Virus record (IMG/VR): IMGVR_UViG_3300026897_000030
Location: 1-58,150 of that record
DNA: 58,150 nucleotides
Strand: one strand, 5' to 3'
DNA from: a virus
Taxonomy: Duplodnaviria; Caudoviricetes
The notes beneath the pieces were generated by a model. That model did no database searches. It saw nothing but the letters and a program-made list of their open reading frames with translations, and was not told the DNA's origin. Position numbers and translations under genes: made by a program. Of the stretch, positions 3,178 to 22,304 are shown one piece after another. Within the stretch, counting starts at the first letter, position 1. Each line of letters begins with the position of its first letter.

Positions 3178-6159
3178 TCAAGCCTCGTCGATGAAGTCGA
3201 GCAGTGGTGCGATGTTCAGGTCGATTTCGTAGAGGTACTCGGTCGCGGTGGAGAAGCGGGTGCCGCCGCCCAGACGGCCGCGGGTGTATCTGGCGCAGAA
3301 TTGCTTCTCGATCGCCTGTGTGAAGACATGCCGGGCGTAGCCGTTCTCGTTGAGCCAGTTCGTGAAGGCGGTGGAGCTGAACCGCACCATCTTGCTGTCG
3401 ACCCCGACATGGACATAGAGGGCGTCGAGCTTCCCGTGGTCGTTCAGGCTGTTGACCAGGGAGACAGACCCGGGGAGCGGCTTGCCGCGGTTGAGGTGGA
3501 TCACGTTCGTGAACAGCGTGTGCCGCGCCCGCATCTGGTTGAAAAACTGCGTCATCACGTTCGACACGTTGATGTCCTGCTTCATGTCGACCGGCTGGCT
3601 GTTGCGCTCACCGCGCATCTTCGCCAGCGTGTCCAGCAGGAAGGCCTTGAGGCCCGGCAGGTTGATGTTGGTGAAGCCCTGCTCGTTGGCATAGGCGGCA
3701 CCCATCAAAACGCAGGTGACGATCGTGACCCAGAACCGCTCGTCTTTCTGAGCGGTTACCTCGTCGGTAATCGCCTTGGCGGCGTTGGTCAGCTCCTCCT
3801 TGATGCGCGCATGGTTGGCGCCGAGAAACTTCGCATACTCGAGGCCGATGACGCCGTAATTGTCGTGGAGCTCGGCGATCATCAGCTGTGCATCGGCCAT
3901 GGCAATTTGGCCCTGCTGGGTCTGCGCCGGTGGCACCTCGTATTCAAACACCCGGTAAAGGCCCGCGGTGGTCATCTTCGTGTTCGAGGTGACGTAGTCG
4001 AGCAGGCTTTCGTTCGATGCCGACACCAGAATGGTCTGCCATGTGCCGACCGAGCGCTGCGTTACGCCCGACGTCATGCGGGATTTCTCTTTGCCGAGGC
4101 TCAGCTGGAAGGTCAGGTTCACAAACCGCTTCGTGTCGTCTTCGGTCTTGAGCTCGTCCCAGTAGAGCGGCAGCGATCGGATCTCGCCGATCTTGTGCAG
4201 CACGCTGTTCTGCGTGTCGCTCAGTCCCTGCATCGCGCGGACGGGGTCGCCCCAGACAGCCTGCGCCACCTTGAGGGCTGTTGTCTTGCCAATACCGGAC
4301 TCGAGTGAGTAGCAGCTCATTTGCAGGCCCGGATGCCCGGTAAAGCGCACCAGTGGGGCTGCAAAAGCGGAGGCGAGGATCGCGTCGAGTGCCGGCCGGT
4401 CCTGATCGGTGATAAGCTTGGCGGCTGCGATCCACGGTTCTCGGGTGCCGGTGGGCTCGTATTGCTGCCCAATGACAAGGTCCGGGGCAACCGCCGGCCT
4501 GCCGCCGTTGGGCGACCAGACATGGCCCCCGAAACAGAAACCCTCGAGCTGGCCGTTGTGGACGTTCCACCCGAACGGCACCGAGTTGATGACGTAGCCT
4601 TTCTGCTTTTGCAGGGTCTCGATCCAGCTAGACATGAATTCCTTCGCGTTTTTGCTTTCGGATTTCCGGATGGGGATGCCCTGGTTCCAGAGCTGTTTAG
4701 TCAGTCCGTCCTCGGTAGACATCGCGTCGAAGGGCAGGGAGATGCGCTTCGCGCGGTTGTTGTCGAGCACGCTTGTGAAGTGCAGCACCCACGGGGAGTC
4801 CTGCACGAACGGCAGCTGCATCGGGTATTTGCAGAGCGGGATTTGCTCAGTGAGGCCCGTGGTGGGATCGACGACCAGCCTAGCGATCACACCGTCCGGC
4901 TGCCGCACGTACCCTTGCGGAACGTCGTTTCCGGGCTGTGCTACAGTAGGTTGTGATGCGGCATGGCTAGTTACCTGGCCGGGTAACAGCTGCGTCGGTT
5001 GGGCCGGCGCGCTGGGTTGGGGACGCGGGGCGAAGTTGAGTGGTGAACGCCCCTTCTGAAAGTGTTGACATTGTGAACAATGAACGGCACCGGCGCCACT
5101 GATTGTGGCGCATGACGGCCATCCGATCCCGCGCTCGCGTTCTTTTGCTTTCCGATCAAAGAGTTCATCGGTTGTGGCCTGTGAATAACCAGGATGCTGC
5201 GATGCCATCCGGTGTGCCTGCGTACGACCGTCTTCGCAGAACACCGATATGAGCGTGGTCAAATTCCATAATGGGTTCGTAAAATTGACGCCACCGCTAT
5301 TGAGCGCATCAGCGATGAATGGACATTCTGTCGCAAGTGCATCGACGTCGGCCGGTGGTGCTTTGCGATCCTCGATGCCGAGCGCGATCTCGCCCACCTG
5401 CACGGGCGCCTTCGGTGGGAAGAGAGCAACGTCAACCGCATAGGCGTCTTGCGGTGCAGCAACCTTGTAAGGCTCGAGGATCTTGGCGATGTGCTCGACG
5501 CTGTAATCGTATTCCGTCTTGGCATTGGTCAGCGACACCGGGCGCGGCGTGCTGGTCTTCTTGTTGACCGTATTCGGTATACGGAGCACGCGGACAAAAT
5601 CGACGGTGCATTGGGTGTCGCATTTCAGCCCGAGCTGCTTGGTGGACTCGGCCAGGGCGCGGGCGATCGGCTCCCATTCATGCACCGTGAGTGCGCGGTC
5701 GAGCGTCCAGTAGACGTGCATGCCGCCGCCGGTCGAGACGATCAGGCTCGGCTTCGGCATCCCCGAAGTGTGGAGATAGTTACCCAGCGCGGTAACCGCG
5801 TCGGCAGGCTCGGCGTAGTCCTTGAAGTCCAGGTCGAGAAAGAGCGACTTGGTCGTCGCTGCGTTCTCGCGGTTGCGGATCGGCGAATACCAGACGTAGT
5901 TGTTCTTGCCGCTCCGCTCGGTCGCGTTCCGCGCCGTAGACATGCAGGCATAGATCGCCAGCGTGTCGGGCTTCGACATCGCATATTCGACCGCCTTCAC
6001 GGCCTCGTTGAGGTTGCGCGCGGCGCGCCCCGCCCATGCCGGGGCGGTGCGGTCGGCGACCGGGAAGGTCCAGTGAATGTTCACAAACGCAGGCGCGTCG
6101 CCTTCCTGTGGCCATGGAAGGACACGCGCCAGATATTCACGCGCTTGCTCGAATGACAT
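3178..6159 (-). CDS. Primase-helicase (N-terminal AEP/RepB-like primase, DUF927 and P-loop helicase)
   Basis: LFLDLD and STGGGMHVYW primase motifs, RVLRIP, Cys cluster, Walker A ESGIGKTT, Walker B LYWDE. Confidence 0.85.
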   Translation of the reverse strand: MSFEQAREYLARVLPWPQEGDAPAFVNIHWTFPVADRTAPAWAGRAARNLNEAVKAVEYAMSKPDTLAIYACMSTARNATERSGKNNYVWYSPIRNRENAATTKSLFLDLDFKDYAEPADAVTALGNYLHTSGMPKPSLIVSTGGGMHVYWTLDRALTVHEWEPIARALAESTKQLGLKCDTQCTVDFVRVLRIPNTVNKKTSTPRPVSLTNAKTEYDYSVEHIAKILEPYKVAAPQDAYAVDVALFPPKAPVQVGEIALGIEDRKAPPADVDALATECPFIADALNSGGVNFTNPLWNLTTLISVFCEDGRTQAHRMASQHPGYSQATTDELFDRKAKERERGIGWPSCATISGAGAVHCSQCQHFQKGRSPLNFAPRPQPSAPAQPTQLLPGQVTSHAASQPTVAQPGNDVPQGYVRQPDGVIARLVVDPTTGLTEQIPLCKYPMQLPFVQDSPWVLHFTSVLDNNRAKRISLPFDAMSTEDGLTKQLWNQGIPIRKSESKNAKEFMSSWIETLQKQKGYVINSVPFGWNVHNGQLEGFCFGGHVWSPNGGRPAVAPDLVIGQQYEPTGTREPWIAAAKLITDQDRPALDAILASAFAAPLVRFTGHPGLQMSCYSLESGIGKTTALKVAQAVWGDPVRAMQGLSDTQNSVLHKIGEIRSLPLYWDELKTEDDTKRFVNLTFQLSLGKEKSRMTSGVTQRSVGTWQTILVSASNESLLDYVTSNTKMTTAGLYRVFEYEVPPAQTQQGQIAMADAQLMIAELHDNYGVIGLEYAKFLGANHARIKEELTNAAKAITDEVTAQKDERFWVTIVTCVLMGAAYANEQGFTNINLPGLKAFLLDTLAKMRGERNSQPVDMKQDINVSNVMTQFFNQMRARHTLFTNVIHLNRGKPLPGSVSLVNSLNDHGKLDALYVHVGVDSKMVRFSSTAFTNWLNENGYARHVFTQAIEKQFCARYTRGRLGGGTRFSTATEYLYEIDLNIAPLLDFIDEA

Positions 6160-6224
6160 TTCAGTTCCGCATCAGGGTTACGTGGTGTGGTGGTTGGCCG
6201 GGGTGTGGGCCCCGGCCATAACCC

Positions 6225-7382
6225 TTAGCTCGGCATCATCGCATTGAGCTTCGCATCCAGGTCGAGCTCGAAGCTGGAGGGCTGCGCGACCGGTGCGGCT
6301 TGTACTGGTGCGGGAGCCGGAGCCGGAGCTGGCGCAGGTGCCGGTGCCCCTCCAAACCCACCAGCGGCCGCCTGAGCGGGCTGGGGGGTCGGTTGAACGG
6401 GTGCCGGGGCTGGCGCAGGTGCCGGTGCCCCTCCAAACCCGCCAGCGGCCGCCTGAGCGGGCTGGGGAGCCGGTTGGACGGGTGCCGGGGCTGGCGCAGG
6501 TGCCGCCCGCTGCAAGACCTGCTGCACAGGGGCCGACTGCACTGGCTGTTGCTGCACCGGCTGTTGCACTGGCGCCGCGGCCGGGGCGGGCGGCTGATGA
6601 CCGGCAAACGCCGACGGCAACTCGATCGGTGCTTGGGCTGGCGCCGCCAGGGCCGGCGCGGCTACCTCGTCCTCGGCCAGCACGCGGGCAACCTCGACCG
6701 AGTTCTGCATTTCCTTGACGATCAAAGCCTCCTCGTCCGTCAGCGGACGGATGGGCTTGAAGATCAGCTTCGGGAATGCCTCCTGCACCGCGAAGGAAAT
6801 CTCGGTGATGAACGCATAGTAGGGGTAACCGAGCTGGGCCATCTTCTGCGAGAACGTGGCCATGTCGCCGAGCGACGCCGCCGGGACGCGCAGCAGCATC
6901 GGGCCGCCCATGATCTCGTTGCGGATGTCCATGCCGGGCACGACAGCGAGGCGCTTGGAGTCGGCGCAGGCCTTGCCCTGCTTGCCGCTCTCGGTGATGC
7001 GCGAGCCCCATGCGTTCATCGGGCAGGTCTGGCACATCGCCGACTGCTTCTTAGGCGCGCCGGCGGCAGGGGTAACGCCATTCGTTGACCAGCAGTCCGG
7101 AGCGGCGTCGGAGCCGTCCTCGTATTTCTTCTCGTACCAGATCTTCGACACCACAGGGGCGGCCTTAAGGATGACCACCGGGATGGCATGCATCGGCCCG
7201 GTGTCGTCCGGGCGCATCAGCACCTGCTCGTCGCCGCGGTAGCGCGTGCGCCACGTCTTGCCCTTGATGCTGATGACACCAAAGCCGCCCTGGATGCCGG
7301 CGGACATGTCATCCGGCACCGGCTGCCCGGCGAAGACACTCGAAACAACCCCGAAATTCTGGGGCACAATCATCTGGTTCAT
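6225..7382 (-). CDS. Phage single-stranded DNA-binding-like protein with Pro/Ala-rich linker
   Basis: PDCWS..G..P...CQTCPMNAWGS...GKACADSKRLAV...PMLLRVPAASL pattern, acidic C-terminus, in the replication module. Confidence 0.65.
   Translation of the reverse strand: MNQMIVPQNFGVVSSVFAGQPVPDDMSAGIQGGFGVISIKGKTWRTRYRGDEQVLMRPDDTGPMHAIPVVILKAAPVVSKIWYEKKYEDGSDAAPDCWSTNGVTPAAGAPKKQSAMCQTCPMNAWGSRITESGKQGKACADSKRLAVVPGMDIRNEIMGGPMLLRVPAASLGDMATFSQKMAQLGYPYYAFITEISFAVQEAFPKLIFKPIRPLTDEEALIVKEMQNSVEVARVLAEDEVAAPALAAPAQAPIELPSAFAGHQPPAPAAAPVQQPVQQQPVQSAPVQQVLQRAAPAPAPAPVQPAPQPAQAAAGGFGGAPAPAPAPAPVQPTPQPAQAAAGGFGGAPAPAPAPAPAPAPVQAAPVAQPSSFELDLDAKLNAMMPS
6328..6506. repeat. 81-bp in-frame tandem repeat (about 2.2 copies) encoding the APAPAPVQP..QPAQAAAGGFGG linker
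   Basis: GCTGGCGCAGGTGCCG recurs at 6328, 6409 and 6490. Confidence 0.85.
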
Positions 7383-22208: not shown

Positions 22209-22239
22209 GTCAGTATCCCCCGAACCATAGCTGCCACCA
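22101..22239. repeat. Perfect 66-bp tandem duplication (2.1 copies)
   Basis: Unit GCCACCAACACGGCGCC...GAACCATAGCT at 22101 and 22167. Confidence 0.95.
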
Positions 22240-22304
22240 CAGGCGAACAAGACGGGGCGCGCGACGATAGCGCGTGCGTGAGGGGCGACGATGAGTGCGC
22301 ATGA

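Follow-up and report, generated by a model that had tools for sequence, protein, structure and literature searches.

Strand-specific nicks have been known in phage T5 since the 1960s and were later described in phiKMV-like and tf-like phages. To our knowledge, no function has been established for them, and the enzyme that makes them is known in few cases only. Here we describe a candidate nick word, the exact 9-mer TGAGTGCGC, in a stretch of 58,150 nucleotides (nt) of Caudoviricetes DNA (IMG/VR record IMGVR_UViG_3300026897_000030, positions 1 to 58,150), which as a whole is called the window below. The record is that of a provirus with an estimated completeness of 96%. By analogy of arrangement, the localized nick sites of tf/LUZ24, T5 and phiKMV are the closest known system.

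In tf, 14 ligatable nicks have been mapped, all of them in the top strand and at the 9-nt word TACT/RTGMC (Glukhov et al. 2012, PMC3517423; GenBank HE611333; here and below PMC3517423 and PMC10644984 are cited from partial text). In the available part of that paper, the word is reported to be absent from the bottom strand and to have only three one-mismatch variants, none of which is nicked (PMC3517423). Twelve sites lie in the early arm on the coding strand and two in the convergent late arm, where they are antisense, and several sites are exactly at gene junctions (PMC3517423; HE611333). The nicks are positioned at 4.5, 7.6, 9.1, 11.4 ... 53, 73 and 80% of the genome; LUZ24, PaP3 and MR299-2, from a group with both lytic and temperate members, have 8-9 copies at similar positions (PMC3517423). 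By our own count, the nick word is the top polar 9-mer of tf (11 vs 0), with gaps of 1392, 721, 1052 ... 5096, 3926, 9129. The same paper quotes R/GCGCRGG as the consensus of the major nicks of T5, and CGACxxxxxCCTA/CTCCGG as that of phiKMV-like phages, where about four sites lie on the non-coding strand and the nicks are repaired early and reappear late (PMC3517423). The function of localized nicks is stated there as unknown (PMC3517423). Mutants of T5 that lack the nicks are viable (PMC3517423; PMC10644984).

An exact scan of both strands of the window found 15 copies of TGAGTGCGC on the plus strand, from 5688 to 22292, and none on the minus strand. Right of 22300 there is no copy on either strand. 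The scan reproduced each of the 15 positions that an earlier note on this DNA had listed by eye, as well as the emptiness of the right part of the window. In 100 dinucleotide-preserving shuffles, the mean number of matches on both strands was 1.13 and the largest was 4; none of the 100 reached 15. The extension TGAGTGCGCG, rightly described in the note as usual, is present at 10 of the 15 copies (position -1 is C on the minus strand). One-mismatch variants are not enriched, with 7 besides the 15 exact copies and about 27 matches in all in the shuffles. Since so few one-mismatch matches are added, the word is exact and not the core of a degenerate site. Among 20 of the 150 literature matches for the two strings, all are oligonucleotides from unrelated work.

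Analysis of open reading frames (ORFs) and of third-position G+C content (GC3) placed the genes of the region 1-22.6 kb on the minus strand and the genes further right mostly on the plus strand. Because the left-arm genes are on the minus strand, the coding-strand reading of all 15 copies in the leftward arm is GCGCACTCA, as had been claimed. The density of the word in this early arm is one per 1.1 kb. From the control region outward, the gaps are 812, 528, 551, 834, 365, 385, 676, 1238, 1372, 643, 1328, 1142, 2765 and 3965 nt. The spacing is thus 365-830 nt near 22 kb and widens to 2.8 and 4.0 kb near the primase gene, in agreement with the reported rise in density toward the control region. 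The placement is mixed, in leaders and within genes: by our gene calls, six copies are intergenic and nine are in coding sequences (CDS), two of the latter in the last codons, 35 nt before the next start. Seven copies are well inside genes, and six of these seven are in the frame xGC-GCA-CTC-Axx. Eight copies lie 18-35 nt 5' of a start codon or 4 nt past a stop codon. No RNA or DNA structure common to the 15 sites was found when they were folded, and no second promoter element was found beside the word.

The word is under selection at the level of DNA. Synonymous-codon shuffles of 33 early CDS (n=2000), which preserve both the protein sequences and the codon usage, contain 0.23 copies on average and 3 at most; the observed number in CDS is nine. 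Codon usage is therefore no explanation of the count, and the objection that an R-A-L-T codon preference could account for it fails. A repeated protein motif is ruled out as well, by the shuffles together with the variety of the proteins in which the copies lie. Among the amino acid contexts of the 33 CDS that are able to encode the word, nine of 15 do encode it.

Relatives were collected using the primase-polymerase/DUF927 helicase of the window (993 amino acids (aa), 3178-6159, minus strand) as a marker. This search returned the Rhizobium phages RHph_TM27A and kin (46% identity), 21 IMG/VR loci at 38-52%, and two prophage copies in a Pseudolabrys genome. A search with an early 255-aa protein (19298-20065, minus strand) added 11 further IMG/VR loci. 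Among the genomes and contigs compared, at least 14 related phages and prophages of Hyphomicrobiales have kept the word, with only 45-50% identity between proteins (range 35-70%). When 14 genomes and contigs are pooled (685 kb), the majority orientation of the respective genome accounts for 116 copies and the opposite one for three, so that the polarity of the word is conserved in relatives, a point that the earlier note had left to be checked. Genome counts are not counts of independent lineages, since the set includes near-duplicates (G027/G028 and the RHph_TM27 group) and several fragmentary contigs.

The numbers in the two orientations are 15 / 0 in G002, 11 / 0 in G025, 9 / 0 in RHph_TM27A, 8 / 0 in G001, 7 / 0 in G024, 5 / 0 in G004, 2 / 0 in G005, 14 / 0 in each Pseudolabrys prophage, 9 / 1 in G030 and 9 / 2 in G031. 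Complete relatives with the word have 8-15 copies each, and in all eight genomes listed the gaps become wider with distance from the early-arm start. G003, a complete relative whose primase is 39% identical, has no copy of the word, and no substitute polar word was found in it. In the pooled relatives, the base preceding the word is rarely G and the following base is C or T; each of the 8-nt sub-words is found outside the 9-mer once.

Some copies are conserved at the same codons of the same genes. In the primase gene, CGC GCA CTC A is used by all 17 relatives that have R-A-L-x after HVYW, and synonymous sites nearby are variable. Where the word is missing, as it is in three sequences, both the residues and the codons are different. 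In PolA, the word occurs at the same codons, 5' of D.SQ(I/V)EAR, in seven of ten genomes, and ..GC GCA CTC A is used in all seven PolA genes with [RS]-A-L-x. A copy is found at most 162 nt upstream of an ATPase gene in six of eight genomes. The distances from the word to the start codon in relatives range from 14 to 46 nt, where the gene calls are our own crude GC3-based ones, poor below about 57% G+C, and the arms were assigned by long ORFs only. Hairpins of the type GCGC(A)..(T)GCGC follow 6-7 of the 15 copies in G002, but not those in the window.

The late arms of the relatives show to what the polarity belongs. Long late-arm ORFs (225 kb, 12 genomes) contain eight copies on the strand of the early copies, where they are antisense to the late genes, and two copies in the opposite orientation. 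One-mismatch neighbours in these ORFs number 0.33-0.48 per word, and the shuffle-scaled expectation is about 2 per strand. The flanks are the same as in the early arm: of nine individually listed majority-strand copies, all nine are followed by C or T, and eight have a base other than G before the word. In two of the three copies with the minority orientation, the word is followed by G or A. The polarity is therefore a property of the DNA molecule itself, or of a single process that runs round it, and does not follow the transcript of each gene. GC skew gives no consistent direction of replication, and third-position skew follows the coding strand. The independent directional cis-code that the earlier note had postulated therefore stands as far as the word is real, selected, polar, separate from the element GTWACC..GGTWAC that precedes start codons, and tied to genome direction; its identification with a stoperator or with Chi does not, for the reasons given below.

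The arrangement in the window and its family resembles that in tf. Both have a 9-nt word on one strand, with 14 copies in tf and 8-15 in the family of the window, and both have two convergent arms, with most sites on the coding strand of the early arm and few, antisense, in the late arm. In both, the spacing widens from the early end, many sites are at gene junctions or near starts, one-mismatch variants are nearly absent, and the number and positions of sites are kept among related lytic and temperate phages. However, the words differ, and the lineages are unrelated, that of the window having Hyphomicrobiales hosts and a P22-like coat. The family of the window has an archaeo-eukaryotic primase (AEP), whereas a DnaB-like primase/helicase is annotated in tf. 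The window word is invariant at nine positions, whereas that of tf tolerates two variable ones. The tf nicks were mapped experimentally, whereas the family considered here is known from sequence alone, and the window is an integrated prophage.

The likeness to the other two systems is more distant. T5/BF23 sites are also on one strand (the nicks of T5 being in virion DNA), and both words start with GCGC, which is a weak resemblance only. However, the 7-mer of T5 is found five times on the strand without nicks as well, which means that T5 needs extra determinants (PMC3517423). The sites of T5 are divided into major and minor ones, its genome has long terminal repeats, and its DNA is injected in two steps. 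The phiKMV-like nicks share with the window a consensus-defined, one-strand system that is kept across a phage group, but their consensus is longer and gapped, and it defines only about four sites on the non-coding strand.

All sequence-level hallmarks of a tf-type nick word are present in the window and its family: restriction to one strand, exactness, conserved positions and concentration at the early end. Our best, though tentative, explanation by analogy is that GCGCACTCA, with a preceding base other than G and a following C or T, may be the recognition word of a phage strand-specific nicking system. The word would be recognised by a site- and strand-specific system encoded by the phage itself. 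The packaged genome would then carry ligatable single-strand interruptions at GCGCACTCA, as in tf, T5/BF23 and phiKMV-like phages. These interruptions would be confined to the strand that codes for the early arm, and ligation would close them once the DNA has entered. The nicking itself, the choice of the strand and the existence of a protein that reads the word are all points that we infer. A role in DNA entry is possible, because the function of localized nicks is not established.

Several points weigh against this explanation. The nicking is predicted from the letters of a stretch that occurs in assembled Logan contigs of one DNA run and in no RNA run listed. No nickase was identified, and besides the terminase large subunit no conserved nuclease was recognised in the family using Pfam/PHROG and tblastn. 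Three ORFs of the window are of the Endonuclease VII type (7969-8412, 9953-10447, 23259-23684), but they are not conserved in the family. The 255-aa protein, which is the sole protein tracking the word, is early, all-helical and without a recognisable fold. No phage of the tf/LUZ24 type was seen among the primase matches and the best 40 of 394 capsid matches (tblastn). The family of the window, with its P22-coat-like capsid, is not homologous to tf, and thus the argument is one by analogy. About half of the copies are 18-35 nt 5' of starts, and one is at a predicted transcript start, which also fits a signal for transcription or translation; the nick sites of tf are often placed in this way, too (HE611333). 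Furthermore, a nick word has no obvious use in an integrated genome, and the window, which has an integrase gene and a tRNA gene at its flank, is a prophage. Finally, three of the 119 copies in the family are in the opposite orientation.

The individual copies, all on the minus strand, are numbered from the control region outward. Copy 1 (22292..22300) is intergenic and starts 4 nt past the TAA stop codon of the CDS 22305-22598. Its GCGCACTCA is overlapped by the ATG of a short Arg-rich ORF that runs from 22302 downward (MRTHRRPSRTRYRR...) after a GAGGTAAT ribosome-site element; this ORF may be due to chance in GC-rich sequence. Just left of copy 1, the control region contains a perfect tandem duplication of a 66-nt unit (22101-22232). 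Copy 2 (21480..21488) is at the 5' end of a predicted leftward early transcript. A consensus scan, on which this prediction is based, finds a sigma70-like site TTGGAA-16-TATGAT with TG at 21526-21499 on the minus strand; the predicted start is near 21492, and so copy 2 would begin at about +3 to +6. Copy 3 (20952..20960) is in the CDS 20731-21144 (137 aa), where cGC GCA CTC Aac encodes R-A-L-N. Copy 4 (20401..20409) is intergenic, and 178 nt downstream of it is a terminator-like hairpin of 13 pairs (20222-20190, minus strand), which together with the promoter at 21526-21499 brackets a candidate first leftward unit, both being consensus matches only. Copy 5 (19567..19575) is in the CDS of the 255-aa protein, with aGC GCA CTC Acc encoding S-A-L-T. 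The two early proteins encoded at 20731-21144 and 19298-20065 share the N-terminal motif LPRLAL.VAKAS; each gene contains one 9-mer, and the hairpin 20222-20190, the strongest terminator-like one of the arm, lies between them.

Copies 6 (19202..19210) and 7 (18817..18825) are intergenic. The former directly follows a strong hairpin and is itself followed by a CA-rich tract and GAGG, and the latter is 23 nt 5' of the ATG at 18793, in a CA-rich leader with GAGG. Copy 8 (18141..18149) occupies the last codons of the CDS 18125-18406 (P-R-T-H), 35 nt 5' of the ATG at 18105. Copy 9 (16903..16911) is in the CDS 16808-17059, where tGC GCA CTC Acg encodes C-A-L-T. Copy 10 (15531..15539) is in the 3' tail of the dGTP-diphosphohydrolase-like CDS 15446-15892, 35 nt 5' of the ATG at 15495, and copy 11 (14888..14896) is in the CDS 14779-15078, in the Q-R-T-H frame, 162 nt 5' of the ATPase gene start at 14725. 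Copy 12 (13560..13568) is intergenic, 33 nt 5' of the ATG at 13526, again with a CA-rich leader and GAGG. Copy 13 (12418..12426) is in the CDS 12341-12652 (S-A-L-I), 84 nt 5' of the start of the DUF2201 gene at 12333, and copy 14 (9653..9661) is in the CDS 9501-9956 (R-A-L-I). Copy 15 (5688..5696) is in the primase-helicase CDS 3178-6159, at HVYWTLD-R-A-L-T, with the codons CGC GCA CTC A.

This placement would also fit an early-arm transcription signal read in the non-template strand or the RNA. The word would then either serve a phage-directed polymerase as a compact promoter or initiator, or be a nut- or ops-like site at which a processive antitermination factor is reloaded. In this case, early transcripts starting in the control region would pass the terminators of the leftward operon of 22 kb and continue into the convergent arm. 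All 15 copies are sense to the early genes, eight stand shortly before starts or just past a stop, copy 21480 is at about +3 to +6 of the sigma70-like promoter with the 13-pair hairpin following the first unit, the copy near the ATPase gene recurs in six of eight genomes, and the early 255-aa protein co-occurs with the word. However, the late-arm copies of the relatives are antisense and yet keep the flank signature, which an antitermination or RNA site leaves unexplained unless early transcription reads round into the late arm. Copies deep in the primase and PolA genes have been kept over long evolution, and at some of the 14 to 46 nt distances to start codons in relatives there is no room for both a -10-type element and a leader that contains a ribosome site. 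Single-element phage promoters of the T4 late and phiEco32 types have a fixed position 5' of transcript starts and are used with a phage sigma factor or polymerase. Here, neither a second promoter element nor a common RNA structure was found, and no match to an RNA polymerase, a sigma factor or a NusG-like protein was seen with Pfam/PHROG in about 41 ORFs of the window or, for the giant protein alone, in a PDB search. An operon has few nut or ops sites, which are transcribed soon after the promoter and include an RNA hairpin in the case of nut and a pause element in that of ops; 15 copies in one operon are unlike either. On balance, we consider a transcription signal possible but not very likely. 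Another explanation makes the 9-mer an initiation site of the AEP primase-helicase, recognised on one template strand, with primers starting there and the "nick sites" being unsealed 5' ends. The primase-polymerase at 3178-6159 is indeed a candidate reader of the word. An exact, strand-specific word is expected of single-stranded template recognition, and the primase-polymerases pRN1 ORF904 and NrS-1 reportedly need specific template words. Moreover, the word-bearing relatives were found through the primase (45-52% identity), one copy is conserved inside the primase gene, and the primase is most divergent in G003, the sole complete genome that lacks the word. This phyletic contrast comes from a single negative genome, however, and GC skew shows no consistent replication direction. 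The right 36 kb of the window contain no copies and the corresponding regions of relatives contain 0-2, too few for lagging-strand priming of the whole genome. Priming at the word is unlikely. It is quite unlikely, too, that the word is a primase-polymerase start on one template strand and that the localized nicks of convergent-arm podoviruses in general are unsealed 5' ends of sequence-programmed fragments. If priming did start at the word, the widening spacing would mark unidirectional replication or entry beginning at the control region, the nicks would have a mechanism, and the members of a phage family would share a conserved code of 9 nt for recognition by the primase.

The two other kinds of signal named in the earlier note, besides an antitermination or RNA site, fare worse. 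Chi and the FtsK-orienting polar sequences (KOPS) are exact or nearly exact polar words of host genomes, present in hundreds to thousands of copies, which a translocating enzyme reads; known Chi words have a length of 5-8 nt. Like them, the window word is an exact polar oligomer whose density is highest toward one point, as would suit protection from a RecBCD/AddAB-type host nuclease entering from the genome end nearest the control region. Unlike them, it is at background frequency in host genomes. The Pseudolabrys genome (4 Mb) has 35 copies, 28 of them in the two prophage copies and only seven in the remaining 3.9 Mb or so, where the reversed control word gives 10 and 9. In 40 further genomes of the same host family, which sum to about 200 Mb, 1162 copies were counted, or one per about 170 kb. 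The word is therefore not a host chromosomal signal, and Chi, KOPS and uptake words of the host were rejected because of these counts. In addition, the word needs every one of its nine bases, and none of its shorter cores is enriched. A Chi-like protective word is accordingly very improbable. Asymmetric stoperators, at which a prophage repressor would block elongation in the early arm, were suggested by the number, asymmetry, frequent intergenic position and single orientation of the sites with respect to early transcription, and by the window being a prophage. In cluster A mycobacteriophages, stoperators are 13-14 bp long and somewhat degenerate; in both arms they are oriented with transcription, and they change along with the immunity repressor. 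The window word, in contrast, is identical in at least 14 phages with 35-70% protein identity, has no degenerate copies, and does not follow late transcription (8 vs 2). The integrase type of the window was found in only two of 22 related genomes and contigs, and its small helix-turn-helix (HTH) proteins (2223-2606, 2641-3120) are unique to it. No small DNA-binding protein common to the word-bearing genomes was found by tblastn at E 1e-4, a search that could miss remote homologues. With no conserved repressor found and the late-arm copies antisense, the stoperator proposal is extremely improbable.

Pairing of the word with a host or phage RNA was also rejected: no Rfam match was found, the only RNA of the window is the tRNA at 359-440, and the complementary word is almost absent from the phages. 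The Rfam search of 1 kb around each of the seven host copies in the Pseudolabrys genome (G006) gave no family match. One genome of the host family, G034, has 29 forward and 8 reverse copies, scattered and without a cluster; this strand skew is unexplained.

The left end of the window has a tRNA gene (359-440, plus strand) adjoining a tyrosine integrase gene (1092-2120, minus strand), and this is likely the attachment site, in line with the provirus label. Between the integrase and the primase are genes for a protein with an HTH similar to DnaA domain IV (2223-2606, Pfam E 6e-12) and an OmpR-type winged-helix protein (2641-3120). Both were dismissed as readers of the word, as neither was found by tblastn in the 22 related genomes and contigs. 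An SNF2 helicase is encoded in two adjacent ORFs (8396-9445 and 9501-9956), flanked by two of the Endonuclease VII-type ORFs; in RHph_TM27A it is one gene of 527 aa. The window lacks the PolA, RecB-type exonuclease and VRR-NUC genes of RHph_TM27A. The early arm also encodes a DUF2201 protein, a MoxR-like ATPase and many small early proteins. The other arm encodes the terminase, an SU10-type portal, a P22-like coat protein, an internal virion protein and a DarB-like protein of 2287 aa. The latter was considered as a virion RNA polymerase and rejected, since Pfam, PHROG and PDB gave only an InPase domain, DarB-like families and a portal-appended domain.

The 255-aa early protein (19298-20065, minus strand), predicted to be all-helical, tracks the word. 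It is present with the word in every complete genome examined and absent from G003, the single negative genome. It has seven homologues, all unnamed, and its ESM Atlas matches are unnamed viral clusters. The AF2 model has a predicted local distance difference test (pLDDT) score of 80.6. Foldseek gave no match in PDB at E <= 0.001, and a wide structure comparison (VIA) returned generic helical hairpins only, at Z <= 6.9. A metagenome scan for close relatives of the gene found none.

A second element, GTWACC-N5-7-GGTWAC, is probably the "first cis-code" of the earlier note. In the form TAACCNNNNGAGGTAAC, it has 56 matches at <=2 mismatches in both arms of the window, where 0.34 are expected; examples are 2608-2624, 7968-7984, 12335-12351, 18111-18127 and 51501-51517. 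In the early arm, it usually ends 1-3 nt 5' of a start codon and has GAGG inside. The related strings GAGGTAAC and GTTACCTT top the k-mer lists of RHph_TM27A and G001.

Some features of the assembled relatives should be mentioned. The two prophage copies of the Pseudolabrys genome (G006:C4, about 44.9-132.4 kb, loci L051-L054 and L066) are exactly 61,893 bp apart and have identical word positions; they are either a tandem prophage or an assembly artefact. The "direct terminal repeats" of G030, G031 and G003 (60, 121 and 61 nt) were not accepted as true ends, because they are at different map positions and are probably overlaps of circular assemblies. Two metagenomic contigs end close 3' of a word, G017 (word at 28-36) at 27 nt and G024 (44961-44969 of 44987) at 18 nt. 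Breaks at nicks could produce such ends, but with about 50 ends examined they are not clearly above chance.

If the word is indeed a nick word, the phenomenon of localized nicks would extend to an unrelated family of alphaproteobacterial phages, including integrated prophages. Nick sites would then be shown to be under strong selection at the nucleotide level, even in essential genes and over deep divergence. The widening spacing, the conserved positions, the 255-aa protein and the one relative without the word would provide a handle for finding the reader. A top polar exact 9-mer with spacing that widens from the early end and with background frequency in the host may also serve as a computational signature of such systems in metagenomes.

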